From contig CAZRVK010000001.1 of the NCBI GenBank assembly GCA_964603585.1, forward strand, positions 207,856-271,855: a stretch of 64,000 bases of DNA. Direction: 5' to 3'. Origin of the DNA: an uncultured Planctomycetales bacterium. Its GTDB lineage: Bacteria > Omnitrophota > Gorgyraeia > Gygaellales > Profunditerraquicolaceae. This document shows positions 3,112 through 37,491 of the stretch, piece by piece (position 1 is the stretch's first letter; the number at the start of each line of letters is the position of its first letter). The translations under genes were made by a program, and so were the position numbers. Under the pieces are notes generated by a model that saw only the letters and a program-made list of their open reading frames with translations, was not told the origin of the DNA and ran no database searches.

Positions 3112-3178
3112 TTCGCCCCTCGTTCTTCATCCCTCATCCTTGACTGCGGCGCAGGCAAGAAAAGTTTCATCATCCACT

Positions 3179-4033: not shown

Positions 4034-4086
4034 ATTACACCTTTTCTATACTTGAAATTGTTCCACAAAAACTACCGAATACCCAT

Positions 4087-5229: not shown

Positions 5230-6308
5230 ACTAACCCCGCGCTTTCTACGAATTTATACATAATGTTCATGTTCTGTACTGCCTGGGATGCAGCACCCTT
5301 CATCAAATTATCGATAGCCGTAATGATAATCAACATATCCCTGGACTCTTTGATGCCAATATCGCAGAAATTCGTTCCAACCACATCCTTAAGCCTTGGA
5401 AAATCTCCTTCATCACGTATCCGCACGAACGGTTCATTTTTATAAAATCTTTTATAGAGATTAAGTAAATCTTGCGGCTTTTGAGCTTTCAAGCTTTGCA
5501 ACCTCCCGGTCTTGCCTCCTTCAGAAAGGATTGGCTTGCCTTGGCACTGGCCTGGAGACCTTCTCACATATATCGTCTCCAAGATCCCCCGCGTAACCGG
5601 CAATAAATGCGGGACAAAGGTCACATTTATTTTCTTTATCGCCAGCCGGCTCAACGCCTGGTTGATCTCCGGGATATGCTGATGGATATTAACCTTATAC
5701 GCCTTAAAATCTTCATTCACTTCAGAAAATAATGCCCCCTCGGAAAGTTTCTTACCCGCACCGCTGGAGCCGGATTTCGCATCAATAATAATGGACCCAA
5801 GGTCTGCCAGGTCACAGGCAACTAAAGGTGCTAACGCCAAAATTGCCGGGGTAGGATAACATCCCGGATTAGCCACTAAAGAAGCGTTCTTTATCTTATT
5901 CCGGTATAATTCCGGCAGGCCGTAAACCGCTTTCTTAAGGTTTACTTTATCTTTATGCCCGACATTATAAAAACGCTCATAGACTTTAATATTCTTCAAT
6001 CGATAATCCGCGCTTAGGTCAATGACACGCAATCCGGCGTTTAAAAGAAACGGGACCATCTCCATTGACGCAGTATGCGGTAACGCCAGAAAAACAAGGG
6101 AGCACTTCTTAATTATCTCCCGGACATTGGTAGCTCCACAGGCAAGATCGATCCGGTTCTTGAATTTAGGGAATATGTCGGAAATTATAAGAGATGAGGC
6201 GCTCTGGCGTGAAAGATAGGTAATCCTGACCTCCGGATGGCGCAAAAGGATTTCTAATAATGCCTCGCCGGTATAACCTGCAGCACCAACAATACCTACA
6301 TTTATCAT
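5226..6308 (-). CDS. argC: N-acetyl-gamma-glutamyl-phosphate reductase
   Basis: The track ORF runs to 6377. I prefer a start at ATG 6306-6308, giving MINVGIVGAAGYTGEALLEIL. An AAGGAGCC RBS lies 5 nt upstream. The longer N-terminal extension would overlap the -35/-10 hexamers at 6349-6377. Confidence 0.85.
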   Translation of the reverse strand: MINVGIVGAAGYTGEALLEILLRHPEVRITYLSRQSASSLIISDIFPKFKNRIDLACGATNVREIIKKCSLVFLALPHTASMEMVPFLLNAGLRVIDLSADYRLKNIKVYERFYNVGHKDKVNLKKAVYGLPELYRNKIKNASLVANPGCYPTPAILALAPLVACDLADLGSIIIDAKSGSSGAGKKLSEGALFSEVNEDFKAYKVNIHQHIPEINQALSRLAIKKINVTFVPHLLPVTRGILETIYVRRSPGQCQGKPILSEGGKTGRLQSLKAQKPQDLLNLYKRFYKNEPFVRIRDEGDFPRLKDVVGTNFCDIGIKESRDMLIIITAIDNLMKGAASQAVQNMNIMYKFVESAGLV

Positions 6309-6348
6309 TCCAGGCTCCTTTATATTTATACTTTCAGGAAGATGTTTT

Positions 6349-6377
6349 ATAATAAAATAAAAACCGCATCTCGTCAA
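6349..6377 (-). promoter_or_regulatory. candidate sigma70-type promoter of the arg operon (TTGACG-N17-TATTAT on the minus strand)
   Basis: Minus-strand reading: cTTGACGagatgcggtttttatttTATTATaaaac. The -35 is at 6372-6377 and the -10 at 6349-6354. It lies between the rpsI terminator and the argC start at 6308. Confidence 0.35.
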
Positions 6378-7329: not shown

Positions 7330-8901
7330 CTACTTGATGTCAAATGTTTTTTTACTTTTTTTATGCTTCCGCCCTTTTTGGAGAAACACCCAGATTACAA
7401 TACAAGCCGCGGTCAATATTGCCCAAAAAGGGAAACTCGATCCTCTATGGCGCATCCTGCCGAAAGCCTGCGGGTTTTTATAGAATATAAACAACTCATT
7501 CTCGGCAAATCTTGCAAGCTTATAATACTCCTCTATTTTTGTGATCTCTTCCGGCGCAGTATTTTTTCCCAAAACAATTATCCCGGAAGCCAGAAAGGGA
7601 TCGTAACTACGGGCGGCGTTTATCTCCGGGAACAAACCATTTGCCGTTGCCCGCCCGGAAAAAACCCCAAGCCAGACTCCAAGCAGGTTTGTATTGCAAT
7701 AGATTATTTCATCGGCCCCGGAATTCTTCCGGACAATATCCGCCGACGATAAAAAATCATCTGTCCGGTATGCCAGCCAAAGGTAACTAAAAAAACCTTT
7801 TTTCTCATCCTCCGGGAATATCATCCCCCGCAATGCCGAATGCCCAATGACCAGGCGAAACCTCGTCTTGTCCTCTGTCTCCGGTTTACTGGTAATAATT
7901 GTCGGAGAGATGACAAAAACATACCCTGCAACCCCCAAAAGAAAAACCGTCTTTAAGTACCTGGTCTTTGAACGCAAGCCAATCCAGGCGGAATCCAGCG
8001 CTGCCGCCGATAAAAGAATAACCGGCAGATATCCTTCAGCCGAGAAGAAACGGTAAGGATATGCCAAGAAAATGATGCTGGCAAAAAATAAAGCCGGGAA
8101 CAGCCGGTATTTCTTTTCGGAGCTAAGGCAAACAAACACTCCAAAACCAGCGGCGATATACTCAAAAATCTTAAACTGGCAGGTAAACCTTTCGTTCAGA
8201 TTGATCCCGATACGCGCGATATGCCTGGATCCAAGCAGTTGAGTGATCAAGACCGGTAAAGATACCGCCAGTGCACATAAAAAAACCATCAGGCAAAACT
8301 TGCGGGAATCCTTATTAAATAGCGCATATAGGAATACGGCTATCGCAAACATCCAGGATATCCCGATATGCATATAAAAACATGCCGCCAAAAGCAGCAC
8401 AGCACGCAGGAATTTCCTTGAAAGTATCTGGCCAAAAGCCAATATCCCGAGGATTATAGCCAGGGTCGCGGGAAGATGATTCATCAGGCTCATGTAAAAC
8501 GAAAAAGAACTGACCCCGAACAGCATGGCAAAGAAAGCAAAACGCTCCCCGTAATGTTTTCGGGTGAAATACCATAAGACCGATAAAAAACCAACCGGAG
8601 CCAGGGTCTCCACTAATTTTGCCAAGATGAGCTTATTAGCCCCTAATTTAAACAATAGCGCCAGTATTATATGAAATAATGGCGGATAGATATGCACCCG
8701 ACCATAAGGCGCATACTCCCAAAAATCCCATCCGGAATATCCACCAGCCTGTAAAAATCCCCAGGCGGTATGCAAATGGTAATAGATATCCATAAACTGC
8801 GGAAGTATTCTCCATCGTGCGATCTGCAAAACAAAAAAAACAAGCCCCACAACCAAGGAAGCAAAACCCCATGAAACATTGGCAAATAACTTATTCCGCA
8901 T
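7330..8901 (-). CDS. polytopic membrane protein, putative GT-C fold glycosyltransferase (ArnT/PMT_2-like)
   Basis: 523 aa with about 11-13 predicted TM helices. The first extracytoplasmic loop reads DIYYHLHTAWGF...GRVHIYPPLFHIIL, resembling the DE..Y...PPL region of ArnT/PMT-family transferases. A large C-terminal soluble domain is followed by a final TM helix. Confidence 0.4.
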   Translation of the reverse strand: MRNKLFANVSWGFASLVVGLVFFVLQIARWRILPQFMDIYYHLHTAWGFLQAGGYSGWDFWEYAPYGRVHIYPPLFHIILALLFKLGANKLILAKLVETLAPVGFLSVLWYFTRKHYGERFAFFAMLFGVSSFSFYMSLMNHLPATLAIILGILAFGQILSRKFLRAVLLLAACFYMHIGISWMFAIAVFLYALFNKDSRKFCLMVFLCALAVSLPVLITQLLGSRHIARIGINLNERFTCQFKIFEYIAAGFGVFVCLSSEKKYRLFPALFFASIIFLAYPYRFFSAEGYLPVILLSAAALDSAWIGLRSKTRYLKTVFLLGVAGYVFVISPTIITSKPETEDKTRFRLVIGHSALRGMIFPEDEKKGFFSYLWLAYRTDDFLSSADIVRKNSGADEIIYCNTNLLGVWLGVFSGRATANGLFPEINAARSYDPFLASGIIVLGKNTAPEEITKIEEYYKLARFAENELFIFYKNPQAFGRMRHRGSSFPFWAILTAACIVIWVFLQKGRKHKKSKKTFDIK

Positions 8902-25347: not shown

Positions 25348-26001
25348 TTAGTATTTGTATGAAATACCGATAACACCAAGATAGGTATTGATCCCGCTGT
25401 TAGGATGGTCAATTCCGGCATTGGAAAGATGCCGTAAACGAAATTCACTCACCAAAGATAAATTCGGCTTAAAGAAATAATGCGCGCCAACAGCTCCTGT
25501 TTCAATGAAATTGAACTGTGTTGACTGCTCCTGGGTGTGCTGGGTCATATAAACCATTCCCACGCCAGCCTTTACAAAAGGCTGGAACTTCCAGTTCTCC
25601 GGGACAAGACCTAACTTCAGGAAAAAAGAATTTCCAACTTCCATATTCGAAGAAGGGTCCCAGACATAGGCTAAATACGGTTCTATCTGTAAATTTACCA
25701 AGGAAGACGGGTTAAATCCGATTCTTTTAGTCAGGTTCTTCAGGTTAAAATCGAGGTCTACGATAAAAGGAACAAAACGGTAATCCGGCTTTTTATCAAA
25801 AACACTTTTTGCCTTCAGTTTATTCCAAGCAAAGCCGCTAAGCAATTCAATGCCGGTAAACGGCATTAAAGGCTCTTTTTCCAATGATGCTCCGGTTTCG
25901 ACGGCTGCCTGTCCATCCACTTGAGCAGCCCAGGAAGGATAAAGAAAGGCAAAAATAAAACATATTGTGATGAGGAGCAATCTGCAGGGTAGCTTTATCA
26001 T
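25348..26001 (-). CDS. outer-membrane beta-barrel protein, lipid A 3-O-deacylase (PagL)-like
   Basis: 217 aa. Has a signal peptide and alternating beta-strand pattern, and ends in an aromatic residue (...GISYKY). A candidate His/Ser catalytic dyad lies in HLSNAGIDHPNSG near the C-terminus, as in PagL-type deacylases. Confidence 0.4.
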   Translation of the reverse strand: MIKLPCRLLLITICFIFAFLYPSWAAQVDGQAAVETGASLEKEPLMPFTGIELLSGFAWNKLKAKSVFDKKPDYRFVPFIVDLDFNLKNLTKRIGFNPSSLVNLQIEPYLAYVWDPSSNMEVGNSFFLKLGLVPENWKFQPFVKAGVGMVYMTQHTQEQSTQFNFIETGAVGAHYFFKPNLSLVSEFRLRHLSNAGIDHPNSGINTYLGVIGISYKY

Positions 26002-26121: not shown

Positions 26122-27348
26122 CTATATACGCCGGCACATCCTAACGGCTTTTTCCATTTCATTCTCCGAAATAAAAATACTCGTGGATAAAGTTATATGC
26201 CGCTTTGCCAAATAAGAAGCAGAAGGTAATTCTTTCTCCTGGATCACCCCTTTTAAATAATCATAGCCATTAACCGCAGAAGTATAAATTTGGGAAACCC
26301 CAAGCCCGGAGTTCTCAAACAGTTGCAGGGCCCTCTTGCGTTTTTGCTGGTCATCGAAAACCAAAGTTAAATACGGATATACGGCCTTTGCCCCTGCCGG
26401 TTCTTTTATCACCGTAACACCCGGAGTATCCTTAAGCCTATATATATAATACTCCGCTTTTTTACGCTGAGCGATAATCTGGCGGTCGATCTGATGAAAA
26501 CCAAGGTGGCCGATCATGTTCCTTAAAGCAGAAACCTTATGTGTAGGGAAGTGTTCACTAAAATACTCGATATTCGCCCTAAGCTTATTCCCCTGCATCT
26601 GCCAAAAGATCTGCGGCAGGCGGAAAACAAACCAGAAAAAAACAGGGTTATAGACAAAGGCATACCCGAACAACTCCGCGACCTTAAGGCCTTCGGAAAA
26701 AATGTCTTTTTTTACAAGCTCCGCGACCTTGCGGTTAACCACTTCTGTATATTCCTTTTTATTTACGGCGATCAAGCCTCCCTCATATATCGTCAATCCC
26801 TTGCCCCGGCACAGGCTGAAAAAAGAAAAATCCCCTAAAGTCCCCACCTTAGCCTGCCGATAGCAGGCCCCTAAACTCTGGGCACAATCTTCGATAATAA
26901 ATATCCCGTTCAACCGGCAGATATGAGAGATCTCCTCGAAGACCAGCGGCACTCCAGCCAGGTGGACTGCTACCACCGCCAAGATATCTTTATTCGAAGA
27001 ACATATCCTTTCAAGATCCCCGGGATCAAAATTAAAGTCCCGGGGGTTTATATCGCAAACCTGGACTTTAAGCCCTGCCCGCTTAATCGCCAAAGGCAGC
27101 AACGGGCAAACAAAAGCTGGAATGACCACGGTTTTTCTTGCGGATAGTTCTTTTAAGCTTTCAAGGATCAAATAAAATGCCGCGCTTCCGGAATAAACCA
27201 GCCATGCAGAATCAACACCAAGGTAGCCTCGAAAATCACCCTCTAAAGAGCCATTCCGGCAAGCTTTCTTTAACCCCGAAAAGATATCTTTCCAGTAAAC
27301 TGGCAGTCCGGCAGTTGGAGGGATTTCTCTAAACAGACTCATTTGCAT
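26122..27348 (-). CDS. DegT/DnrJ/EryC1/StrS-family PLP-dependent aminotransferase
   Basis: 408 aa. Family blocks present (IIEDCAQSLGA..KVGTLGDFSFFSLCRGKGLTIYEGG) with a PLP-lysine region. Confidence 0.75.
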   Translation of the reverse strand: MQMSLFREIPPTAGLPVYWKDIFSGLKKACRNGSLEGDFRGYLGVDSAWLVYSGSAAFYLILESLKELSARKTVVIPAFVCPLLPLAIKRAGLKVQVCDINPRDFNFDPGDLERICSSNKDILAVVAVHLAGVPLVFEEISHICRLNGIFIIEDCAQSLGACYRQAKVGTLGDFSFFSLCRGKGLTIYEGGLIAVNKKEYTEVVNRKVAELVKKDIFSEGLKVAELFGYAFVYNPVFFWFVFRLPQIFWQMQGNKLRANIEYFSEHFPTHKVSALRNMIGHLGFHQIDRQIIAQRKKAEYYIYRLKDTPGVTVIKEPAGAKAVYPYLTLVFDDQQKRKRALQLFENSGLGVSQIYTSAVNGYDYLKGVIQEKELPSASYLAKRHITLSTSIFISENEMEKAVRMCRRI

Positions 27349-27444: not shown

Positions 27445-27861
27445 ATGAAAACAAAAAAAGTAACATTAAAAATTCTGTCATTCTTAATACTCACCGACCT
27501 TTTAGAAACCTTAACCCAGTTTTGTTTTAAGAAAAGCGCCGACCTGCAAAGCGCATTTTATATAAATACAATTACTGATACTTACCAATTCCTCAAAGTA
27601 ATCTTTTCTTCCGGCTACCTTTGGGTCGGTTTTATTTCCGTGTTCTTGACCTTCAGCATATGGTCAACGATACTTTCGAAAATCGATCTAAGTGTCGCCG
27701 TCCCTATCGCCAGTTTCAGCTACATATTAGTGCCCTTGGTCTCGATTGTCTTCCTGCATGAACAGGTTTCAATCCTTGACTGGACAGGGATATTCTTCAT
27801 CCTAACTGGAGTAATATTTGTTTCTCTTAGCAGTGAAAAAACCGGAGCTGTAAGTAAATGA
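27445..27861 (+). CDS. small 4-TM membrane protein, DMT/EamA half-transporter (ArnE/ArnF-like)
   Basis: 138 aa with 4 predicted TM helices. Overlaps the next gene by 4 bp (ATGA), which suggests a heterodimeric pair. Confidence 0.5.
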   Translation: MKTKKVTLKILSFLILTDLLETLTQFCFKKSADLQSAFYINTITDTYQFLKVIFSSGYLWVGFISVFLTFSIWSTILSKIDLSVAVPIASFSYILVPLVSIVFLHEQVSILDWTGIFFILTGVIFVSLSSEKTGAVSK

Positions 27862-28247
27862 AAAACAGCGCACTCTTTATAGTATCTCTTATCATCCTGG
27901 CTTCACTTTTTGATACCATCAATCAACTGTTCCTTAAAACCACCATAAACTCACTAGACTTAAATATAAACGGTTTTAAAAAAGCTGTCGGGTTCGTATT
28001 GAAACTGCTTACCAGGCCAAGGATCTGGGTCGGTTTCTTCTTCTGCTGTCTGTCCCTGGTAGTCTGGCTATTCGTGCTTTCAAAGGCCGACTTGAATTTC
28101 GCATTCTCGGTTGACAGTATGCATTATATTTTTATTGCTATCGCCTCAAAATTCATTTTAAAGGAAAAGGTTGGCTTTAAACGGTGGGTCGGAACCGCCT
28201 TTATTGTTTTAGGGATTATCTTACTAACTTTTAGCAACAGTAATTAA
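27858..28247 (+). CDS. small 4-TM membrane protein, DMT/EamA half-transporter (ArnE/ArnF-like partner)
   Basis: 129 aa with 4 predicted TM helices. Translationally coupled to the preceding gene. Confidence 0.5.
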   Translation: MKNSALFIVSLIILASLFDTINQLFLKTTINSLDLNINGFKKAVGFVLKLLTRPRIWVGFFFCCLSLVVWLFVLSKADLNFAFSVDSMHYIFIAIASKFILKEKVGFKRWVGTAFIVLGIILLTFSNSN

Positions 28248-28249
28248 TC

Positions 28250-29755
28250 CTATTTCAAATACCTAAGGACTAAATTAGCCGCATTGATCCCGGAAATAAA
28301 ACATCCGTGCACACCCCCTCCCGGAACAGTCCAGGCACCCGCTAAAAACAACCCGTTAACCGGAGTCTTCTGGGGCAGGCGGTTTATGCTTGACTCCGAG
28401 ACAGTTTGAGCGAACCCATAAATCGCCCCGTCATCAGACAAGGTGTATCTTTGCATGGTTTTTGGGGTCGCCGCATCCATTACCTCGATATTTTTAGATA
28501 ACCCAGGAAGATATTGTTCGGCACGCCGTATCAATTTATCGGCGACCTTAGCTTTTTTCTGCTGATACTCTTGGCGGCTTAAATTGCTCCAATGCGCGAA
28601 ACTATCGAAGGTAATGATCAGTAAACTGCCTTTTCCGTAAGGGACAATGCTGGGATCCACCTGGGCATGATCAGTTAAGATCAATGAACAACGGTCATAA
28701 TCGCCTAAAAGGCAATAATTAAAGTTTTCATCGTGGCTGTAAGAGGTACTGATCGATAACAACCCGTGGTCCATGCCTAAATCCTTTGCCGGTACCTTAA
28801 GCCCTAAATATACCTGAAATGCAGAAATTGACTTTTCCTTAACAGCCAAGCGATGGGCATACTTATCCTTGAGGTCCGCATGATCCAGTAACTGCGTCAT
28901 GGTCTGGATCGCAGAAGCGTTAGAAATTACGGCTTTGGCCTCAAATTCCTGGCCATCAACCGCCAGCACGGATAAGGAATATTTATTATGGGGGATTATT
29001 TTCTTGACCAAGGTGTTGAATCTTACCTGTGAGCCGTTTTCTTTTATTTTATCTGATATCGCACGAAAAAGCTGCAGAAATCCGCCCCGGACATAAGCGG
29101 TAGGATTATAAAAATAACCCCTAAAAACAATAAAGAAATAAAATGCCGAGAGTTTACTTGGCGCCAACCCCATAAACCTCCAGATATCACCAATGATGCC
29201 TTTGAGCCTTTGATCGCCGATATATTTATCCAGCACTCCAGATGCGGAGCCAGAGGACATACTGATAATAGCCGGATATAAAAAAGGGGCAAGAAGCAAA
29301 TTAATCAATTCCGGTAATTTCGAGTTATTGAACCGGTCAAATTGCTGATAAAACCCATCCAGATCAGAAAAAAGCTTCTCGATCCCGTTTTTTTCATGGG
29401 GGAAATTATTCTGTAAGAAAGCGATTAAATGCTCCCTGCTAAAATCCGCGGTAAAATCATGGTCCGGATAAATGATCCTGGCAAAATCTTTAAGCGGAAT
29501 GAATTCCACTTTTCTATCGACACCATATTCCTCAAGGAATTGCCGTATCTCTCCCTGGGGAGCAAGCGCATTCACACAATGTATGGCAGACTCGAAAATA
29601 AACCCTTTACGAAGAAAGGTTGTAGCATATCCTCCAGGAACAGGCTGTCTTTCCAAGACCAGGATTTTCTTGCCGGAAGCAGATAGTTTTAAAGCCGAAA
29701 CTAACCCCGCAACCCCGGCACCAATAATGATCGCATCATAACGCATGATCGTCAC
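28250..29755 (-). CDS. FAD-dependent oxidoreductase, phytoene desaturase (CrtI)-like / amine-oxidase fold
   Basis: 501 aa. The N-terminal dinucleotide-binding motif YDAIIIGAGVAGLVSALKL...LVLERQPVPGGY is present. Length and C-terminal GGGVHG fit CrtI-type enzymes. Confidence 0.7.
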   Translation of the reverse strand: MTIMRYDAIIIGAGVAGLVSALKLSASGKKILVLERQPVPGGYATTFLRKGFIFESAIHCVNALAPQGEIRQFLEEYGVDRKVEFIPLKDFARIIYPDHDFTADFSREHLIAFLQNNFPHEKNGIEKLFSDLDGFYQQFDRFNNSKLPELINLLLAPFLYPAIISMSSGSASGVLDKYIGDQRLKGIIGDIWRFMGLAPSKLSAFYFFIVFRGYFYNPTAYVRGGFLQLFRAISDKIKENGSQVRFNTLVKKIIPHNKYSLSVLAVDGQEFEAKAVISNASAIQTMTQLLDHADLKDKYAHRLAVKEKSISAFQVYLGLKVPAKDLGMDHGLLSISTSYSHDENFNYCLLGDYDRCSLILTDHAQVDPSIVPYGKGSLLIITFDSFAHWSNLSRQEYQQKKAKVADKLIRRAEQYLPGLSKNIEVMDAATPKTMQRYTLSDDGAIYGFAQTVSESSINRLPQKTPVNGLFLAGAWTVPGGGVHGCFISGINAANLVLRYLK

Positions 29756-29762
29756 CGTACAA

Positions 29763-30599
29763 TTATATGCTGTTTAGAAAAGCAATGAACTCCTGGGCAA
29801 CCCGGTCTTTTTCCTTATCAATAGTTATCATATGGTAACTATCTTCAATAACTATCAGGGATTTATTCATAGATCCAATATGATTAAGGACAAACTCGGC
29901 ATTTTTAAGACTGGTCATATCATCTTCTTTGGCGTGAATTATCAGGATAGGGGTTTGCACGCTCTTTAACTCTTTTTTTACGGTTTTAGTAAAAAGATGG
30001 TGCTGGTAAAGGCAGCTCATCGGGAAAAAAGGGCTTCCGAACAATAAAACCTTGTTGCTGAATTTCTTGGCACTGGCATCCTTATAAAACCTCTCAATGT
30101 TCCATCGCAACTCTTCATCTTTTAAACCATACGGCCAGCCTTCCCGGATATCCAGGCGGTTACGAATGAAAGGTATATGCCAGACCAGGTTCATTAAGGC
30201 CTTGCCTTTATGCAAAGCCCAGCCATCATAATATATAGTGGGCGCCAAAGCCACTATCCCGGATATCTGGTCCGGGAACTTATAGGCCAGGTGTATGCTC
30301 ATCAAAGCACCCAAAGACAACCCCCCGACATAAACCCGCAGATGATCTTTTTTTAAAAAATGCAGATCATCGGAGCAGGCCGAGGCAATCTCCTGCCAGG
30401 TAACCTTTTTCAACTCCCCTAAAGTCCCGCAGTGGCGCGGCAATGCATTGCAGAATACCGTATACCCTGCCTGATTCAGTTTCTTACCCAGATAACGCAT
30501 TTCCGAAGGAGTCCCGGTGATCCCGTGGATCAAAAGCACTGCCTTGCCATTATCGCCCTTAAGCAAGAAATTAAATTTCTTAGAATTATTAATAGTCAT
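29763..30599 (-). CDS. alpha/beta-fold hydrolase (esterase/thioesterase/acyltransferase type)
   Basis: The nucleophile elbow is GLSLG. An HG oxyanion region (LLIHGITG) is present. I moved the start to ATG 30597-30599 (MTINNSKK), because the longer track ORF would overlap the divergent gene and its promoter. Confidence 0.7.
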   Translation of the reverse strand: MTINNSKKFNFLLKGDNGKAVLLIHGITGTPSEMRYLGKKLNQAGYTVFCNALPRHCGTLGELKKVTWQEIASACSDDLHFLKKDHLRVYVGGLSLGALMSIHLAYKFPDQISGIVALAPTIYYDGWALHKGKALMNLVWHIPFIRNRLDIREGWPYGLKDEELRWNIERFYKDASAKKFSNKVLLFGSPFFPMSCLYQHHLFTKTVKKELKSVQTPILIIHAKEDDMTSLKNAEFVLNHIGSMNKSLIVIEDSYHMITIDKEKDRVAQEFIAFLNSI

Positions 30600-30655
30600 A
30601 ATGTGGGTTATTATATCATAAAATCCATTGATGTGAATTAATATTGCAGCCTTTC

Positions 30656-30683
30656 CTGACAGATAAAATACCGTATATATAAT
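30656..30683 (+). promoter_or_regulatory. candidate sigma70 promoter of the DUF482-like gene (cTGACA-N16-TATAAT)
   Basis: Plus strand: cctgacagataaaataccgtataTATAATtg. It lies 35 nt upstream of ATG 30719, in the divergent intergenic region. Confidence 0.3.
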
Positions 30684-30718
30684 TGCATTTATCCTGTTTT
30701 TTGCTATACTTCTAATCC

Positions 30719-31849
30719 ATGGCCGATAAAAACAGTTTAACATTTAAGATCAAGCACACCATTAACGACATCCCTGAATCTGCCTGGAGGGACCTTTTTG
30801 ATAAAGGCATAGTAGAAAATTACGGTTATCATAAGACCCTCGAGGAATCCGGGCTGAAAGAATTCTCATTCGCATACCTCACGGCAGAACGCGCAAATAA
30901 GCTTTGTGCGATCGTGCCATTTTTTATCATGGATTTCTCATTCGATACCCTGCTGCCAGATCACTTTAAAAAAATCGCCAAAAGGCTCAAACCATACATC
31001 AAAATGAAAGTGCTTTTTTTAGGCGCCCCGACAACCGAAGAATTTTATTTCGGGCTTTCTTCTGAAGAAAACATAGAGCCGTTCTTTAACCAGGCCATTC
31101 AGGAACTCCATTCGTTCTGCAAGGAAAAGAATGTCTGCGGACTGAATTTTTACAACATCTCCGATAAAAATGCCGCCTTACGCCGGTATTTACAAAAGAA
31201 CGGGTTCATTGAGATGGAAAGCCTGCCCACAACAATGATCGAGATAAAAGCCTCCTCCCTGGATGATTATATCCGCGGCCTAAGCAAAAATATGCAAAAA
31301 GACATCCGCCGGAAGATAAACCGATCACAAAGCCAAGTCCAGCTTACTACCGAAACACGTGATAATATAGACGATATCAGCCAGGAGATATACCGTTTAT
31401 ATTTAAACAATTTCTCTGATTCCGAAGTACGTTTTGAGGTTTTAACCGAGGATTTCTTTCGCAGGATTTGCCGCAATATGCCGAATGAGGCCAAATATTT
31501 TATAACTTACGCCGGAACAAAAATCGTGGCATTCAACTTGTTCATGGCAAAAGACGGCCTTTTTATAGACAAATTCATCGGTTTCGATGAAGAAACCCGT
31601 ATAAAATATCATTTATACTTCACCACCTTCTGCCACAATATCGATTGGTGTATAAAAAACGGCTGTAATTTTTACCAACCGGGAACCACTGACTACCACC
31701 CTAAGCTAAGGCTGGGGGCAAAACTGATCCCCCTTTATAACCAGGCAAAAGGATTCAACCCGCTCTTGCACAATTTTCTAAAATTAATCTCAAGATTTAT
31801 CCAACCGATCAATCTTGACCCATCATTGAAAGAACTTAGAAAACCTTAA
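30719..31849 (+). CDS. GNAT-fold acyltransferase, DUF482/FemAB-like (PEP-CTERM-associated type) family
   Basis: 376 aa. The N-terminal pattern INDIPESAWRDLFDKG...YHKTLEESGL...KLCAIVPFFIMD resembles the FemAB-like/BioF2-like N-acyltransferase family. Overall length and the twin-GNAT architecture fit. Confidence 0.5.
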   Translation: MADKNSLTFKIKHTINDIPESAWRDLFDKGIVENYGYHKTLEESGLKEFSFAYLTAERANKLCAIVPFFIMDFSFDTLLPDHFKKIAKRLKPYIKMKVLFLGAPTTEEFYFGLSSEENIEPFFNQAIQELHSFCKEKNVCGLNFYNISDKNAALRRYLQKNGFIEMESLPTTMIEIKASSLDDYIRGLSKNMQKDIRRKINRSQSQVQLTTETRDNIDDISQEIYRLYLNNFSDSEVRFEVLTEDFFRRICRNMPNEAKYFITYAGTKIVAFNLFMAKDGLFIDKFIGFDEETRIKYHLYFTTFCHNIDWCIKNGCNFYQPGTTDYHPKLRLGAKLIPLYNQAKGFNPLLHNFLKLISRFIQPINLDPSLKELRKP

Positions 31850-33063
31850 AGGAAAGAAGCCTTCTTCATTACCAAACTGGCATTATTACCGCCAAAGGCT
31901 GAAGCGTTATTGAGGGCAATATCGACCTTCATTTGCCTGGCAACATTAGGCACACAATCGATATCGCATTCCGGATCGGGAGTTTGGTAATTAATCGTAG
32001 GAGGGACAATATCGTTTTGGAGTGCCAAAGCGCAAGTGATCGCTTCGATCGCGGAAGCAGCACCCATCGTATGCCCAAGCATGGATTTAATAGAACTCAC
32101 TGCAACCTTACCTTGGATACCCGCAAAAACCGCCTTAATTGCGGCGGATTCGACTTTATCATTAACGGGAGTGCCGGTGCCATGGGCACTGACATAATCC
32201 ACATCTTCTGCCTTGACATTAGCCTGCTTTAACGCATTCCGCATGGACCGGGCAACACCATCAGCTTCTGGTGCAGTCATATGATACGCATCACAGCTTA
32301 AGCCGTACCCGAGGACTTCCGCATAGATCACCGCCTTGCGGTTTAAGGCATTCTCCATACTCTCTAAAACCACAATACCTGCGCCTTCTCCTACCATCAT
32401 CCCTTTGCGGTTCTTATCAAAAGGCTGGCATTTAACCGGCGCTACCGCCAAAAGCCGGTTAAATCCGGTAAAAGCAAGGCGGGAAAAAGCATCCACCCCT
32501 CCGGCAAGCATCATCTCTGCCTGCCCCATGCGGATCAAGTCACAGGCGTATCCGATCGCATAATTCCCCGCAGCACAGGCAGTAGGGATCACCAAATTCG
32601 GACCACTTATCCCTAACTCATTGGCGACATTAAAAGCCAGGACATTTGCCGGATACTGGAAAATAAGCTCCGGGTTTATCGCATTCACTCCCCCTTTTAT
32701 CCAGGAAGAATTAATCACTTCTAAAACTTGAGACTCCCCCATTGTCGTTCCTAAAATCACTCCGGTTTCCCGGTGATCCATGGAAACTGCCTTTAATCCG
32801 GCATCCTTTAACGCCAATTTGGCAGAAGCAATCGCCAGGCATGAAGTCCGGCCCAGATTAGCTATTTTATTCTTTGCAATAAATAATGCCGGATCAAAAT
32901 CCTTAACCTCACCGCCGTTATGCGTTGGATAATTTGAAGTATCAAAAGAGGTGATCTCCGAGATCCCGGAAACACCTTTTAAGAGGGCCGGCCAAAAAGC
33001 ATCCCTGCCAATACCAATCGAAGATATGACTCCTATACCCGTGATTACGATACGCTTATTCAT
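31846..33063 (-). CDS. 3-oxoacyl-ACP synthase (FabF/KS type, catalytically complete)
   Basis: 405 aa. Has the Cys block PTACAAGNYAIG and the His motifs AHGTGTPVND and GHTMGAAS. This is a second KS, distinct from the housekeeping fabF. Confidence 0.85.
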   Translation of the reverse strand: MNKRIVITGIGVISSIGIGRDAFWPALLKGVSGISEITSFDTSNYPTHNGGEVKDFDPALFIAKNKIANLGRTSCLAIASAKLALKDAGLKAVSMDHRETGVILGTTMGESQVLEVINSSWIKGGVNAINPELIFQYPANVLAFNVANELGISGPNLVIPTACAAGNYAIGYACDLIRMGQAEMMLAGGVDAFSRLAFTGFNRLLAVAPVKCQPFDKNRKGMMVGEGAGIVVLESMENALNRKAVIYAEVLGYGLSCDAYHMTAPEADGVARSMRNALKQANVKAEDVDYVSAHGTGTPVNDKVESAAIKAVFAGIQGKVAVSSIKSMLGHTMGAASAIEAITCALALQNDIVPPTINYQTPDPECDIDCVPNVARQMKVDIALNNASAFGGNNASLVMKKASFL

Positions 33064-33068
33064 AAATT

Positions 33069-33527
33069 TTACAATCCCTGGCCATCCATTACATCCTCTT
33101 TAGCACTTAAGGATATCTCTGCCTTGGCGACATCACGGTCTGCAACCTGGGCAAGCGCCTCAACTATCGCCACACCAGACAACATCTTCACCGGAGTTAC
33201 CGTAATTTTAAGCTGATCACCGGGTAAAACCGGGCTCAAATACCTGACCTTAGCTGCACCCAAATAATAAGACATCTTCTTTTGCCCTAAAGCAACGGAT
33301 TTTGCGGAATAAAAAAGCACGATCGCCGCTTGTGCCATTGCCTCCAGGATCAAAACCCCCGGCATCACCGGCTTATCCGGGAAATGTCCGGCAAAGAACT
33401 GCTCGTTCATACTGACATTTTTCACCGCCACGACTTTTTTGGCGGGATCTATCTCCACCACCCGATCGATCATCAAAAAAGGGAACCGTTGAGGCAGGAT
33501 CCTTTGGATTTCCTCGATATTAAGCAT
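33069..33527 (-). CDS. fabZ: 3-hydroxyacyl-ACP dehydratase
   Basis: 152 aa. Has the FabZ hot-dog motifs FFAGHFPDKPVMPGVLILEAMAQ. Confidence 0.85.
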   Translation of the reverse strand: MLNIEEIQRILPQRFPFLMIDRVVEIDPAKKVVAVKNVSMNEQFFAGHFPDKPVMPGVLILEAMAQAAIVLFYSAKSVALGQKKMSYYLGAAKVRYLSPVLPGDQLKITVTPVKMLSGVAIVEALAQVADRDVAKAEISLSAKEDVMDGQGL

Positions 33528-33777
33528 TACTTGCTCCTTTACTATCTAAAAACTGCCTGGCTACCGCCACAGTCTCTTTTAATGTAGTAAGCTGCGCAAG
33601 TTTATCCTCGGGGATCGCGATCTTATATTTTTTCTCTATCGCCGCCATGATCTCTAAGGCCATCATCGAATCAACCCCCAGATCCTCAAAGAACCTGGCA
33701 TCAGGCGTAACCTCTGCCGGAGTTTTTTCAATGATCTCTGCGATGATCCCTCTTATCTCTTCCTCGATATTTTGCAT
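33520..33777 (-). CDS. acyl carrier protein (second copy)
   Basis: 85 aa. The phosphopantetheine motif DLGVDSMMALEI is present. Confidence 0.85.
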   Translation of the reverse strand: MQNIEEEIRGIIAEIIEKTPAEVTPDARFFEDLGVDSMMALEIMAAIEKKYKIAIPEDKLAQLTTLKETVAVARQFLDSKGASNA

Positions 33778-33787
33778 ACATACCCTC

Positions 33788-34534
33788 CTATTTTATTCCA
33801 AGCCCGCCGTCTATGATAATTGTCTGTCCCGTAATATACCCGGAAGCGTCATCAAGCAGGAATTTTACCGCAAAAGCAACATCCTCGGCCTGGCCAAACC
33901 TGCCAAAAGGAATATTTTCTTTAATCACTGTTTTATATTTATCATTCAAAGCAGCCACCATGTCAGTTTCAATAAAACCCGGCGCGACCGCATTCACCCG
34001 GATATTATAAGGCCCCACTTCCTTTGCCAATGATTTGGTAAAACCGATCATTCCGGATTTAGAAGCAGCATAATTGCTTTGGCGCGACATCCCCACCACC
34101 CCGCTCACAGAAGAAATATTTACGATACTTCCTTTTTTCTGTTTGAGAAAAGTCACAATGGCATTACGGGTGACATTGAACATCCCTCCAAGATTAGTAT
34201 CGATCACCTCCTGCCAATCATCTTTGGTCATCATCATTAGCGCTTTATCCCTGGTAATACCAGCGTTATTGACTAAAATATCCAGCCTCCCAAAATTCTC
34301 CAGGGTCTTGCCTACCAACTCCTTCGATTTCTCAAAATCACGGGCATCCATCTGTAATGCCAGATATTTACCCCCTAAAGCCTTGATCTCATCTCCAAGG
34401 TCATTCGCCTGGCTTGTACTCTTTAAATAAGTAAAAACGATATTAGCGCCCTCTCTGGCTAACATTAAGATGATCGCTTTGCCAATACCTCTGGTGCCGC
34501 CGGTAACTATCGCTGTCTTCTGCTCAAATAACAT
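33788..34534 (-). CDS. 3-oxoacyl-ACP reductase (SDR, FabG-like; second copy)
   Basis: 248 aa. Has TAIVTGGTRGIGKAI, NNAGI, and the YAASKSG catalytic motif. Confidence 0.85.
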   Translation of the reverse strand: MLFEQKTAIVTGGTRGIGKAIILMLAREGANIVFTYLKSTSQANDLGDEIKALGGKYLALQMDARDFEKSKELVGKTLENFGRLDILVNNAGITRDKALMMMTKDDWQEVIDTNLGGMFNVTRNAIVTFLKQKKGSIVNISSVSGVVGMSRQSNYAASKSGMIGFTKSLAKEVGPYNIRVNAVAPGFIETDMVAALNDKYKTVIKENIPFGRFGQAEDVAFAVKFLLDDASGYITGQTIIIDGGLGIK

Positions 34535-34536
34535 AT

Positions 34537-35772
34537 TTATCCCCGGAATTTAGAAAATACAGCACTGGCAGTGCGCGCCTGTGATGCACAGCTGTTAACC
34601 AGGACATTGTTCACCTCGCATTCAAGCGTTTTACCCGTAACAAAATTAAGCCCGCATTCTGGATCCGCCTCTGCATAATTAGCCATCGCCGGCACACCCT
34701 GGCGGGTTAAAGCCAACACAGCCTCGATACTCTGCAAAACCCCCCCGGCACTATAAGATTCGCCCACAATGGATTTAAGCGCCGTTACCGGTGGTAGTTC
34801 TCCAACAGAAGAAAAAACGTTTTTTATGGAAATGGCTTCGATCTTATCGGCGTAAACTGTAGAATTGGCGGCAGCAGAGATATAACCGATCTGATCCAGG
34901 CCGATTGCGGATTCTCGGGATGCCATCTGCATTGACTGGGTCAAACCTGCTTGGCCAAAACCCCAGCCAAAACCAGAAACTTCCGCATAGATATTTGCCC
35001 CGCGGTCAACCGCAGATCCCAGTTCTTCCAATACCAATATCCCGGCACCTTCAGATAAAACAATACCATTCCTTCTTTTATCGAATGGACAGCTCAACTC
35101 CACACTCCCCAAGGACGTGCCAGCTAAAAATCCGGTTTTATAAAAACCCAAATAGATCTGCTCGCACAACTCCTCCACTGCCCCAGCCAGGATAAATTTC
35201 GCCCGGCCTAAACGCAAAAAATCATAAGCATATTTTAATGCATCCAGGGAAGCAGAGAATCCGGTCGAGATCGTGGTATTTAGCCCTTTAATGTTGAATC
35301 TAAGTGAAACCTGGCTCGCCGGGGAGTTGATCACCGTGTTAGGAAAAAGAGCGGGATTAACATACTGCGGGCCATCTATCACGGCATCCCGGTCAAAATT
35401 ACTGATACTGCTGACACTGCCCAGGGTATTACCCACAACTACCCCAGCCTCACAGGTATTACTGTCATCCATTATGACCTTTGCGTCATCCAAGGCCAAT
35501 TTGGTCGCGCATAAAAGCAGCTTTGTGCTTCGGTCAAGCGTCCTAAGCCCTTTTGCGCCTAAGATCGCTTCCGGAGCAAAACCCCCTATCTCTCCTGCTG
35601 TTTTTGCGCTAAATCCAGCGGTATCAAACAAAGAAACCGGTTTTATCCCGGAAATAGAATTAAAAACAGCCTGCATAAAGGCATCTTTTCCGACAGCATT
35701 AGAGGCAACTACCCCCAAACCGGTAACAACCACTCTTTTTCTCATGAATTTCCCCTTAGAACTGACATTCAA
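34537..35772 (-). CDS. ketosynthase-like protein lacking the Cys-His-His catalytic triad (chain-length-factor-like partner)
   Basis: It has the KS fold throughout. At the position of the active-site Cys it reads ISTGFSAS, against ATACASG in FabF. At the first His it reads AAANSTV, against AHGTST. At the second His it reads GESYSAGG, against GHLLGAAG. The likely true start is ATG 35743-35745 (MRKRVVVTGLG), with an AAGGGG RBS upstream. Confidence 0.7.
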   Translation of the reverse strand: MNVSSKGKFMRKRVVVTGLGVVASNAVGKDAFMQAVFNSISGIKPVSLFDTAGFSAKTAGEIGGFAPEAILGAKGLRTLDRSTKLLLCATKLALDDAKVIMDDSNTCEAGVVVGNTLGSVSSISNFDRDAVIDGPQYVNPALFPNTVINSPASQVSLRFNIKGLNTTISTGFSASLDALKYAYDFLRLGRAKFILAGAVEELCEQIYLGFYKTGFLAGTSLGSVELSCPFDKRRNGIVLSEGAGILVLEELGSAVDRGANIYAEVSGFGWGFGQAGLTQSMQMASRESAIGLDQIGYISAAANSTVYADKIEAISIKNVFSSVGELPPVTALKSIVGESYSAGGVLQSIEAVLALTRQGVPAMANYAEADPECGLNFVTGKTLECEVNNVLVNSCASQARTASAVFSKFRG

Positions 35773-35893: not shown

Positions 35894-36832
35894 TCACATG
35901 AGCGCCTCGGCTATCCGGATATTCGTCTGTCCGTTCGTTGCATCAATCTGCCTGTCATCAACATCTTTTGCGCTATACTCTTTCGGATGATCAAGGGTTG
36001 AACAAATCGATTTAAACCTGCCGTGTATCTTTATCCGGGAATACTCCCCGGTAACATCTAATCCAACGATATCCGTATTCTCCTTGAAAAATTTCAGGAT
36101 AAAAAGCAGCTCATCCAGGGAAAAACGGCCTTCCTCCCAGTTGGTCAAGGCATACTTACGGGTCAGACAATCCTTATCAATACTGATATATACCTTATCG
36201 GTGGCAAAGCGCCCTATCATAGAAGACAGGAATTTTCCCATCTCCCTGCCTTTAAGTTCCTGCCAGGATATTTCATTATAATACCAGCTTTTTTTTAATC
36301 CAATAGACAGATTTTGCGGCACATCCCTGAATATTACCCTGGCAGGTTTATGCGAATATGGATAAATCTCCAGCCGGTTATTCCTCATAGCAGCCAAATT
36401 CCCGCTTTCCAAATGCAAAGTCGAAATATCATCAGAGGCTACACCGAATAAAACCACTTTCTCAATGTTTTGTGAGCGTAACGCCCGGCTAACCCAGGAA
36501 CCACATCCGGTTTTCGGAGGCAAGGTATCCCAATCAGGGTGATTATCAAAAACAATCAGGTTTAGAGGCTGACTGAACTGCTCTAAGAGGATGCTGGAGA
36601 TATGATGGAAGTCACCGGACCCAAAGAAAGTTATCCGGTTCTTATCGGAAAAGGCCAGCGCCTGCTTTATCTGGATCTCGGCGTTTTTATCCAGCCAGAA
36701 CCGGCAATCAAGCCCTATTTTCAGCAAATCAACTACTTCGGGATTGAAACGCCTGATAAAATCATCCTGCCTTAAAAGGCTGTTATCAAAATTGAGTATG
36801 CGGATTTGACCGGGAAGTAATCGATTCATCAA
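35894..36832 (-). CDS. arginase/agmatinase/formiminoglutamase-fold (ureohydrolase superfamily) protein, substrate unknown
   Basis: 312 aa. Counterparts of the arginase metal-binding motifs appear in the canonical order. GSGDFHHIS stands for GGDHS, FDNHPD for DAHAD, SIDKDCL for SxDxDxLDP, and GLDVTGEYS for DVVE. Confidence 0.45.
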   Translation of the reverse strand: MMNRLLPGQIRILNFDNSLLRQDDFIRRFNPEVVDLLKIGLDCRFWLDKNAEIQIKQALAFSDKNRITFFGSGDFHHISSILLEQFSQPLNLIVFDNHPDWDTLPPKTGCGSWVSRALRSQNIEKVVLFGVASDDISTLHLESGNLAAMRNNRLEIYPYSHKPARVIFRDVPQNLSIGLKKSWYYNEISWQELKGREMGKFLSSMIGRFATDKVYISIDKDCLTRKYALTNWEEGRFSLDELLFILKFFKENTDIVGLDVTGEYSRIKIHGRFKSICSTLDHPKEYSAKDVDDRQIDATNGQTNIRIAEALM

Positions 36833-37491
36833 ACCATTCTTCTTAAACCAGCATAGACGCTTTTTAAATCCCTGAACGGGATACAGCCGCGCCTTATCTT
36901 TTTAAAATATTCCAACAGATCATCCTTGGCAAAAACAATATCTGCCTGCTGGGCAGGGCAAATATCAGAACGGCCGTCTCCGATATAAATGATCCTCTCC
37001 TTAAACCTGTTTCTTAATAAATTGTTCCTCTTGCAATGAGCACAATAAGAACAAGCGCGGTTATGATGCGGAAAATAAAGCAATAATCTGTTTTTGGAGA
37101 ATTTCAGCCGGTTAGAACAAACCTTTATGCCGCAAATATCATTTTGGCGTAGGATGACATTGATAATAAAAGAAAAATTATCGCTTAATATCTTGACCGG
37201 GATATTCTTTGATTTAAGTAAAACAAGTATTTTCTTGAAATAAGGGTCGATCTTTATGCCGGACAAATAGCGCAATAAATCTGTCTTGGATAAACGCACG
37301 CCTGCTAATTGCCCTCTAAGGCAGGCCCGGGAGCCAATAACCCCCTTTTTCCACTGTCTTTCAAGTTCAACCCATTTCTTATCTATCGAGAAACGTTTAA
37401 TGATATCATCCAAAACATCAACCTTTGTGATCGTATTGTCAAAATCAAAGAAAACTGCATGTCCAGATAAGAAATTCATATATTCCGCCAT
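36829..37491 (-). CDS. HAD-superfamily phosphatase (MtnX/phosphoserine-phosphatase-like subfamily) with an inserted Cys cluster
   Basis: 220 aa. Motif I is FFDFDNTIT (DxDxT). A C-terminal GDGRSD motif is present. There is an unusual CSYCAHC segment. Confidence 0.55.
   Translation of the reverse strand: MAEYMNFLSGHAVFFDFDNTITKVDVLDDIIKRFSIDKKWVELERQWKKGVIGSRACLRGQLAGVRLSKTDLLRYLSGIKIDPYFKKILVLLKSKNIPVKILSDNFSFIINVILRQNDICGIKVCSNRLKFSKNRLLLYFPHHNRACSYCAHCKRNNLLRNRFKERIIYIGDGRSDICPAQQADIVFAKDDLLEYFKKIRRGCIPFRDLKSVYAGLRRMV

Follow-up and report, generated by a model that had tools for sequence, protein, structure and literature searches.

We examined a 64,000-nucleotide stretch of DNA (the window) from an uncultured bacterium of the Omnitrophota (contig CAZRVK010000001.1, positions 207,856 to 271,855), focusing on an open reading frame (ORF) at 30719-31849 on the plus strand, which begins with ATG and encodes a 376-aa protein (hereafter, the transferase). 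The first-pass annotation, made from the letters of the window, had reported this ORF and quoted N-terminal strings of its product, and we recovered both: the translation contains INDIPESAWRDL, KTLEESGLKEF and CAIVPFFIMDF, and an alignment of 22 homologues backs the start codon. This is a real gene for a double-GNAT FemAB-like protein, a member of PF04339/PF13480, and it belongs to a module of partner genes that is conserved from Omnitrophota to Pseudomonas and is apparently uncharacterised; we found no description of the module in the literature. The module most likely builds and flips an amino-acid-bearing membrane lipid.

Two hidden Markov models, which had been named in advance as the check on the FemAB-like assignment, both scored above their Pfam gathering cut-offs: PF04339 (FemAB_like) matched residues 15-327 with 67.5 bits (cut-off 27), and PF13480 (Acetyltransf_6) matched residues 191-327 with 50 bits (cut-off 22). 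Among 93 relatives of the transferase, PF04339 was matched by 92 and PF13480 by 83. PF02388 (FemAB) and PF09924 (LPG_synthase_C) gave no match to the window transferase at E ≤ 1, and an NCBIfam scan at the same threshold, TIGR03019 included, revealed nothing beyond noise; with this null result, and with no exosortase among the scanned neighbours of the window gene, the link to exosortase/PEP-CTERM loci suggested earlier falls away. The transferase has no demonstrated membership in the FemAB, LPG_synthase_C, OlsB-type or TIGR03019 families, and may work like the first or the third of these. The protein (isoelectric point 8.6) has no hydrophobic stretch long enough for a membrane helix, and is predicted to be soluble.

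Close homologues share 49-59% identity with the transferase over its full length, and those named by organism all belong to Candidatus Omnitrophota. A scan of reference genomes with the transferase recovered 48 loci, mostly from Omnitrophota metagenome-assembled genomes, with a few labelled 'uncultured Planctomycetales' or 'bacterium'; a profile search (E ≤ 1e-3) returned 3,418 representative clusters of the FemAB-like family at 50% identity clustering. In the literature on DUF482, PF04339, COG3146, PF13480 and FemAB-like proteins, we found no experimentally assigned function or functional study. The COG3146/PF13480 proteins of the argolaphos cluster (AlpO/AlpF) have been proposed to be aminoacyl-tRNA peptide ligases (PMC8976061), and an invalidated pterin hypothesis also touches FemAB-like family names (PMC3223725).

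The transferase gene lies divergent from the genes for an alpha/beta-hydrolase and a CrtI-family flavin adenine dinucleotide (FAD) oxidoreductase and converges on a ketosynthase (KS) gene, KS1, an arrangement that the first-pass annotation had described correctly. The tails of the transferase and KS1 ORFs overlap by 4 bp (31846-31849), leaving no space for a terminator between them. The earlier count of three plus-strand genes is about right as well; the other two are the EamA genes, functional partners of the transferase. The genes around it are as follows.

25348-26001, minus strand: PagL-like outer-membrane beta-barrel, an occasional accessory, with MipA in its place in proteobacterial operons
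26122-27348, minus strand: DegT/PseC-like aminotransferase, adjacent in 9/10 type-B loci (defined below)
27445-28247, plus strand: EamA1 and EamA2, half-size EamA/DMT (drug/metabolite transporter) membrane proteins of 138 and 129 aa, 4-helix-sized
28250-29755, minus strand: CrtI-family FAD oxidoreductase, confined to type-A Omnitrophota loci (defined below)
29763-30599, minus strand: alpha/beta-hydrolase (Hydrolase_4) with a Ser95/Asp/His256 triad, partner of the transferase in both clades
30719-31849, plus strand: the transferase
31846-35772, minus strand: block of KS1, FabZ, acyl carrier protein (ACP, 33520-33777), FabG and KS2 (the KS block)
35894-36829, minus strand: ureohydrolase-fold ('arginase family') protein, a core partner; Pfam Arginase 36 bits versus a cut-off of 22
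36829-37491, minus strand: HAD-IB phosphatase (MtnX-like/Put_Phosphatase), a core partner

Conserved partners and gene fusions

We searched each window neighbour by tblastn against all loci, and two clades resulted; the counts below refer to well-flanked loci, with at least 6 kb on either side of the transferase (n = 12 for type A, the clade of the window; n = 10 for type B). Type-B transferases are 27-39% identical to the window protein; their genes are followed on the same strand by two half-size EamA genes and are divergent from DegT and alpha/beta-hydrolase genes, with arginase-like and HAD genes alongside. DegT, both EamA genes, the hydrolase and HAD were each present in 9/10 type-B loci and the arginase-like gene in 7/10, with the KS block and the CrtI-like gene each at 0/10. 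The Pfam annotation of one locus (L046) agrees with this layout and adds a PagL-like barrel. Type-A loci are strongly rearranged around RecG and Dus: the hydrolase and CrtI-like genes were found in 8/12, the KS block in 7/12, DegT with the EamA pair in 4/12, and the arginase-like and HAD genes also in 4/12. The window and two further loci (L021 and L022) carry all blocks, namely the PagL-like, DegT, EamA1, EamA2, CrtI-like, hydrolase and transferase genes, the KS block, and the arginase-like and HAD genes. These partners (the ureohydrolase-like protein, EamA pair, HAD phosphatase and aminotransferase), together with the aminoacyl-tRNA-type folds reported below, had been overlooked by the first-pass annotation.

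The more distant homologues that bear a name belong to Pseudomonas protegens, P. frederiksbergensis, P. gingeri, Phenylobacterium, Asticcacaulis, Gemmatimonas and Rhodanobacteraceae. In distant genomes the module genes form single operons and are homologous to the window genes at 25-36% identity (tblastn). Four such operons read as follows.

L056: HAD, class-III aminotransferase, arginase-like, EamA, FA_desaturase, hydrolase, transferase, EamA; nearby are DegT, patatin and an ADC-family gene
L057 (70% GC): KS, HAD, aminotransferase, arginase-like, EamA, hydrolase, EamA, transferase, two FA_desaturase genes
L059 (encodes P0456, which NCBI assigns to Pseudomonas protegens): this set again, with MipA, FA_desaturase and sigma54 two-component regulators added
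L060 (encodes P0409, Phenylobacterium soli): PhoQ-like two-component system, HAD, aminotransferase, arginase-like, EamA, hydrolase, transferase, EamA, MipA, ACP, KS, FA_desaturase

The two-component system of L060 pairs a PhoQ-like HAMP kinase with a regulator of the OmpR type. In L057 and L060, the KS genes lie no nearer to the window KS1 than to its housekeeping FabF, which indicates that KS/ACP genes joined the module more than once. Our first reading, in which the KS block was irrelevant to the transferase, was overturned by the adjacency in 7/12 type-A loci and by the KS/ACP genes of L057 and L060.

Pfam annotation of long family members revealed gene fusions that join the transferase to its partners: FemAB_like with EamA (P0129, P0131, P0186 and P0255), Hydrolase_4 with FemAB_like (P0171), FemAB_like with an arginase-like domain (P0216), PilZ with Aminotran_1_2 and FemAB_like (P0192), and FemAB_like with the membrane domain DUF4118 (P0174). 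One further protein, P0079, carries FemAB_like fused with Fe/Mn superoxide dismutase domains. At one distant locus (L052), a transferase-EamA fusion and a second EamA gene lie beside genes for an arginase-like protein, a class-III aminotransferase, a HAD phosphatase and a hydrolase, and DegT is missing; at another (L054), a transferase-arginase fusion is followed by two EamA genes and nothing else of the module. These two contexts define an irreducible core of transferase, ureohydrolase and DMT (EamA) pair. Directly upstream of the fusion gene in L052 (3133-6616) lie toxin-antitoxin pairs (ParE, RelE and HigB with helix-turn-helix partners).

The core is usually accompanied by the hydrolase, the HAD phosphatase and an aminotransferase of the DegT or class-III type, and several module copies without DegT carry a class-III aminotransferase. 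Frequent accessories are KS/ACP genes, a desaturase (CrtI-like in Omnitrophota) and an outer-membrane barrel; the CrtI-like enzyme occupies the accessory role that FA_desaturase genes hold in other lineages. The desaturases, patatin, KS/ACP genes and outer-membrane barrels point to a membrane-lipid pathway, and MipA with flanking two-component systems in the proteobacterial copies suggests regulated envelope remodelling. In one Omnitrophota genome (L003/L006, 1-9716), a FemAB-like gene stands alone, without the module; its neighbours are a 2416-aa protein with transglutaminase-core and ART-PolyVal matches, AbiEii, and a DEAD/ResIII helicase with an AEP-TOTE match, and the region looks like a defence or conflict island.

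Several partners in the window were characterised further. The ureohydrolase-like protein has 1,226 homologues at E ≤ 0.001, and its His/Asp motifs G72-D73-x-H75-H76, D95-x-H97-x-D99 and D218-x-D220, which resemble the binuclear-metal ligands of ureohydrolases, are invariant in 28 sequences; its model (predicted local distance difference test, pLDDT, 88.5) is closest in fold to agmatinase, arginase, guanidinase and proclavaminate amidinohydrolase. The protein most likely strips urea from a guanidino group, exposing an amine. In the left part of the window (1918-6377 and 7330-8901 region), an argD-argB-argJ-argC cluster provides ornithine via the normal route; a 523-aa DUF6541 protein is encoded there as well. 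The hydrolase has an intact Ser/Asp/His triad, with an invariant HX4D at the catalytic His. Its mechanical ORF extends to 30743, 48 codons longer and overlapping the transferase start; its start is probably ATG 30599, given the position of the Pfam match (from residue 67) and the promoter geometry described below. The EamA pair matched Pfam EamA, with ArnE/ArnF as the best NCBIfam matches (33-45 bits versus cut-offs of 92 and 99); similarly, the best NCBIfam matches of the DegT protein are sugar aminotransferases including ArnB (55.6 versus a cut-off of 631). A neighbouring Spt-type alpha-oxoamine synthase, as considered for a relationship to the bacterial ceramide synthase bCerS (CCNA_01212), was not indicated: no Aminotran_1_2 gene was found near the window transferase gene.

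In KS2, the Cys and both His residues are lost (TGFSAS, SAAANST, GESYSAG), so that it resembles a chain-length factor (CLF) and KS1/KS2 resemble a KS plus CLF pair. The KS block contains no enoyl reductase, and together with the CrtI-like enzyme it looks like a type II polyketide synthase-like module for an unsaturated or polyene lipid. A housekeeping fab operon lies separately, at 14.5-19.9 kb of the window.

Fold and promoter of the transferase

The AlphaFold2 model of the transferase (pLDDT 86.7, predicted template-modelling score 0.84) comprises two alpha/beta GNAT-like halves, and the top Foldseek matches in the PDB are all tandem-GNAT proteins, in agreement with the GNAT fold proposed earlier. 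The best matches are aminoacyl-tRNA-dependent transferases: FemX_Wv, FemX_Sa, Sbb17/Sba18, the synthase domains of MprF and other aminoacyl-phosphatidylglycerol synthases (aaPGS), and FemA. They matched with E-values from 2e-11 to 6e-10, query-normalised TM-scores (TMq) of 0.47-0.60 and target-normalised TM-scores of up to 0.76; the best target-normalised matches were Sbb17/Sba18, whose structures are bound to the amino-sugar intermediate streptothrisamine. Tandem GNATs that use acetyl-coenzyme A (acetyl-CoA) ranked lower (VipF, TMq 0.33-0.39; CBG, TMq 0.54-0.56 with a weaker E-value).

At the sequence level the similarity is remote. We used two family profiles, the shallower A1 and A2, built from 93 sequences, and checked the FemX_Wv sequence against 3GKR_A. 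When the PDB was searched by sequence, A1 found no relative of the transferase, A2 gave spurious aIF2-alpha matches only, and hhalign of A1 against FemX was not significant. With A2, hhalign aligned residues 178-323 to FemX_Wv 156-292 at E 5.9e-4 with a probability of only 29%, which is below significance; this alignment spans the whole second GNAT domain and ends at G322/G292, short of K329. It places a conserved basic helix that opens GNAT domain 2 (R193-K194-x-x-R197-R198-K199) on SKTKSKIKR of FemX, again at 29% probability. In Fem-type enzymes, a positively charged helix at this place has been proposed to hold the acceptor stem of the tRNA; the helix of the transferase could equally dock ACP. 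Weak secondary Pfam matches among the 93 relatives were to ATE_C (6), FemAB (5), LPG_synthase_C (3) and Acetyltransf_1 (6).

K329 is the only invariant column among the 93 sequences, which are 20-51% identical to the window transferase, and its context, [D/N]325-Y326-x-x-K329-x-x-x-G333, is conserved in both Omnitrophota clades. In Fem-type enzymes, a single Lys in the C-terminal region is essential (K305 in FemX_Wv and, with N325, K329 in DhpH-C; PMC12945691); K329 of the transferase recalls FemX Lys305 and DhpH-C N325/K329. By inspection, which is weak evidence, neither GNAT half has a Q/RxxGxG/A CoA-phosphate loop after beta-4; the conserved columns there are G102-A-P-T-T-E and G288-F-D-E-E-T. 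Acyl-ACP enzymes may do without this loop. PF13444 (Acetyltransf_5), which we take to be the family of OlsB/OlsF-C/GlsB, is absent from the matches of the window transferase and from the 25 families listed for its 93 relatives at E ≤ 1; the transferase may nevertheless catalyse the reaction of that family.

The first-pass annotation had also proposed that the transferase has its own promoter. The intergenic region of 119 bp contains three promoter-like elements.

30610-30637, minus strand: TTCACA-16-(TG)TATAAT, for the divergent hydrolase/oxidoreductase pair; the -10 ends 10 nt before ATG 30599
30656-30683, plus strand: distal element CTGACA-16-TATAAT, 11/12 matches, 35 nt before the ATG
30683-30710, plus strand: proximal promoter, with a -35-like TTGCAT (30683-30688), a 16-nt spacer and the extended -10 TGCTATACT (30702-30710)

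The distal element is the one that had been proposed, as TGACA-N16-TATAAT. It is unlikely to arise by chance, as an element equally good occurred in 0.8% of composition-matched shuffles of the intergenic region. Promoter sites with at least 11/12 matches number 12 in the whole window versus 1.3 expected (about nine-fold), and 11 of these 12 near-consensus sigma70 sites lie on the gene-rich minus strand. The distal element was found in 0/29 non-redundant orthologous loci, and thus only in the window. Conversely, the extended -10 TGCTATACT, ending 8 nt before the transferase ATG, follows the pattern TGnTAnnnT, which ends 6-11 nt before the ATG in 29/30 non-redundant type-A loci, the window included (shuffle control: mean 0.35, maximum 2). 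A TTGTGn/TTGTAA box lies ~17 nt upstream of the conserved extended -10 in type-A loci, and the TATAAT of the distal element shares one base with the -35 region of the proximal promoter. The idea of a dedicated promoter and the existence of the proposed element thus hold, but we demoted that element as the functional promoter, since it is statistically unusual yet confined to the window; on sequence conservation, the promoter of the transferase appears to be the proximal extended -10. As this element ends 8 nt before the ATG, a leaderless transferase mRNA is predicted, with transcription starting at or within ~2 nt of the ATG. In five other strong promoters of the window, the -10 ends 6-11 nt before the start codon (e.g. 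starts at 61976, 30599, 26001, 24228 and 7306), and leaderless or very short-leader mRNAs seem to be common in the source Omnitrophota genome.

Donor, product and competing explanations

We propose that the transferase would act at the cytoplasmic face of the inner membrane, joining an amino-acid-derived group to a lipid, and that the EamA pair would move the product across the membrane. The synthase-plus-flippase-plus-hydrolase logic would be that of MprF, executed by non-homologous membrane parts; in MprF-type systems, a double-GNAT synthase works together with a flippase and with hydrolases encoded in the operon (PMC6103681). In the simplest version, arginyl-tRNA would supply arginine, the ureohydrolase would trim the transferred arginyl group to ornithyl and urea, and the alpha/beta-hydrolase would remove or recycle the modification; in the window clade, the lipid part would be supplied or tailored by the CrtI-like enzyme and the adjacent KS/CLF-FabZ-ACP-FabG block. 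To our knowledge, tRNA-dependent enzymes deliver proteinogenic amino acids only, so that an ornithyl group would need trimming of arginyl after transfer; this is the sole rationale we found for a universal, sometimes fused arginase.

For the donor, we narrowly favour an aminoacyl-tRNA, in a near tie with acyl-ACP and with less than even confidence, a lean that follows from the fold of the transferase, its profile similarity and the invariant K329. Several observations weigh against it. The assignment draws on remote similarity: the FemX alignment has a probability of 29% and ends before K329, so the equivalence of K329 and K305 is not established, and the PDB sequence searches and the shallow profile were empty. 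The fold ranking is biased, as solved double-GNATs are mostly Fem/MprF, and the acetyl-CoA enzyme CBG reaches a similar TM-score. Residue 193 of the basic helix is Gln in the window transferase and Arg in at least 90% of the 93 relatives. The hydrolase-transferase fusion appears to mirror OlsF, which joins O- and N-acyltransferases, and would fit an acyl-ACP donor better, as would the independent recruitment of KS/ACP genes in at least three lineages. The module has neither an aminoacyl-tRNA synthetase gene nor a tRNA gene associated with it, and tRNA and Rfam scans of the window were empty. Finally, neither donor model accounts for the aminotransferase and the HAD phosphatase.

Acyl-ACP (or acyl-CoA) as the donor is quite possible, if not our first choice. 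The transferase would then be an N-acyltransferase that starts an acyloxyacyl amino-lipid of the ornithine-lipid type, by passing a (3-hydroxy)acyl chain from an ACP, either dedicated or housekeeping, to arginine or ornithine at the alpha-amine, with the EamA pair flipping the lipid; this extends the acyl-ACP N-acyltransferase chemistry of the first-pass annotation, which is plausible. The KS/CLF-FabZ-ACP-FabG block adjoins the transferase in 7/12 well-flanked type-A loci, and KS and FabG without an enoyl reductase would deliver 3-hydroxyacyl-ACP; ACP and KS genes lie within the L060 operon and a KS gene within L057, having been recruited independently, and desaturases and patatin occur within module operons. 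Yet the KS block and the CrtI-like gene are found within 8 kb in 0/10 type-B loci and are missing from minimal modules, and the window transferase lies convergent to the KS block and is not co-transcribed with it.

The alpha/beta-hydrolase, with its invariant HX4D at the catalytic His, also speaks for an acyl-ACP donor. Planctomycetes are relatives of Omnitrophota. The planctomycete alpha/beta-hydrolase OlsI is an O-acyltransferase of ornithine-lipid synthesis (PMC12493201), the Hydrolase_4-FemAB_like fusion parallels the joined O- and N-acyltransferase domains of OlsF (PMC12971839), and some aminolipid N-acyltransferases are still unidentified (PMC11631085). Against an acyl-ACP donor, there is no PF13444 match at E ≤ 1 among the families listed, the nearest folds and the weak profile matches are to aminoacyl-tRNA enzymes, and no Q/RxxGxG/A loop was seen by inspection, though acyl-ACP enzymes may not need one. 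Furthermore, a dedicated, even fused arginase is hard to justify under this explanation, since the argCJBD pathway, whose genes lie in the window, passes through free ornithine in any case.

It is unlikely that the module instead makes and exports a soluble small molecule, for example with the ureohydrolase converting agmatine to putrescine, which would be acylated or aminoacylated and exported as a cation by the EamA proteins. The ureohydrolase-fold partner is indeed nearest to agmatinases and guanidinases, JGI names one fusion 'N-acyltransferase/EmrE-like cation transporter', the class-III aminotransferase and HAD phosphatase would suit small-molecule metabolism, and Sbb17/Sba18 act on a soluble amino-sugar intermediate (PMC12945691). 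However, the recurring desaturases, patatin, KS/ACP genes, PagL-like and MipA barrels and lysophospholipase-type hydrolase argue for lipid substrates, and the EamA proteins, besides matching Pfam EamA, show weak similarity to the ArnE/ArnF models of lipid-linked-sugar flippases.

An Arn-like modification of lipid A or lipopolysaccharide, in which DegT would make a carrier-linked amino sugar (on polyprenyl-phosphate or a nucleotide), the transferase would N-acylate or aminoacylate the sugar and the EamA pair would flip it on its carrier, is improbable. ArnE/ArnF and ArnB are among the best NCBIfam matches of the EamA and DegT proteins, but every score falls far short of its cut-off. A PagL-like lipid A deacylase adjoins, and acylation of an amino sugar by an aminoacyl-tRNA enzyme has a known example (Orf11/Sba18; PMC12945691), yet no ArnA, ArnC, ArnD, ArnT-type, formyltransferase or glycosyltransferase gene was found in the module copies examined and the scanned parts of the window, and DegT is missing from several complete module copies. 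A cell-wall Fem-type ligase on a peptidoglycan precursor, or an exosortase/PEP-CTERM-associated FemAB protein, is very improbable: Pfam describes the family under 'peptidoglycan biosynthesis/recognition' and the fold search ranks FemX first, but the window transferase matches neither PF02388 nor any NCBIfam model, TIGR03019 included, no mur or exosortase genes occur in any locus examined, and the conserved partners are all lipid and transport genes.

Returning to the amino-acid-bearing lipid, one specific form would be a split MprF-like system, in which arginyl-tRNA arginylates the lipid, the arginase-fold enzyme trims it to ornithyl on the lipid, and the DMT heterodimer flips it outward; in some lineages, the lipid would be a purpose-built amine lipid from KS/ACP and aminotransferase. 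We regard this combination, taken as a whole, as unlikely. If it were true, the lipid class would be new, as would the use made of the arginase fold and the family of lipid flippases, with a non-proteinogenic cationic head group installed through the tRNA pool. With an aminoacyl-tRNA donor in general, the module would aminoacylate a lipid in a tRNA-dependent way, with a membrane part that has no kinship to that of MprF; with an acyl-type donor, it would be a fourth amino-lipid route with the first candidate aminolipid flippase. One branch of PF04339 (DUF482, COG3146) is now tied to fixed partner genes by synteny and fusion across phyla, and the presence of the module in cultivable, genetically tractable bacteria (Pseudomonas protegens and Phenylobacterium) makes its function directly testable. 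The PhoQ-like and sigma54 regulators alongside suggest remodelling of envelope charge, relevant to tolerance of cationic peptides and polymyxin.

Comparison with known systems

The Arn system resembles the module in its DegT-type aminotransferase (ArnB) and its heterodimer-like pair of ~130-aa DMT proteins (ArnE-ArnF). It differs in that the scores are far below cut-offs, ArnA/ArnC/ArnD/ArnT are absent from the module, and DegT is dispensable in many module copies. The Fem group (FemX/FemA/FemB, DhpH-C, DhpK, PacB, VlmA and Orf11/Sba18/Sbb17) shares the two GNAT domains and may share the basic helix at the start of domain 2 and the single conserved Lys towards the C-terminus, whereas the sequence similarity is below significance, the window transferase has no PF02388 match, and the module context is one of lipid and transport, its acceptor probably not being a peptidoglycan or antibiotic precursor.

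Ornithine-lipid and aminolipid synthases (OlsB/OlsA, OlsF, OlsH/OlsI and GlsB) offer a parallel in possible successive N-acyl and O-acyl steps, with an alpha/beta-hydrolase as the O-acyltransferase in OlsH/OlsI and a fused architecture in OlsF; the module, likewise, has a putatively ornithine-producing partner enzyme and ACP/KS genes nearby. Unlike these synthases, its transferase is a double GNAT of another family, and the known pathways lack the arginase, EamA pair, HAD phosphatase and aminotransferase. No paper linking an arginase-type enzyme to aminolipids was found in the literature, and a review mentions no aminolipid flippase (PMC11631085). We also dropped the idea of a DUF2156/MprF-like domain in OlsF, for which no support was found.

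A parallel to the proposed trimming step exists outside lipids. The peptide arginase OspR and the amidinohydrolase DstH are arginase-fold enzymes that trim an incorporated arginine or guanidino group to ornithine or an amine, the rationale being that the assembly machinery cannot use ornithine directly. OspR and DstH act on peptides or polyketides, whereas the substrate in the module would be a lipid conjugate.

The MprF/aaPGS systems, with their AhyD, VirJ and PesT hydrolases, pair a double-GNAT synthase with a membrane translocator, sometimes fused to it, as the module appears to do; both have a gene for an esterase or hydrolase close by, the proteobacterial module copies have two-component regulators of the envelope-stress type as neighbours, and the MprF synthase domains are among the best fold matches of the transferase. 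The differences lie in the parts: the synthase of the module belongs to PF04339 and that of MprF to PF09924; the putative module translocator consists of two 4-helix EamA/DMT subunits, as opposed to the N-terminal domain of MprF; and the module adds an obligatory ureohydrolase, a phosphatase and an aminotransferase that MprF systems do without.

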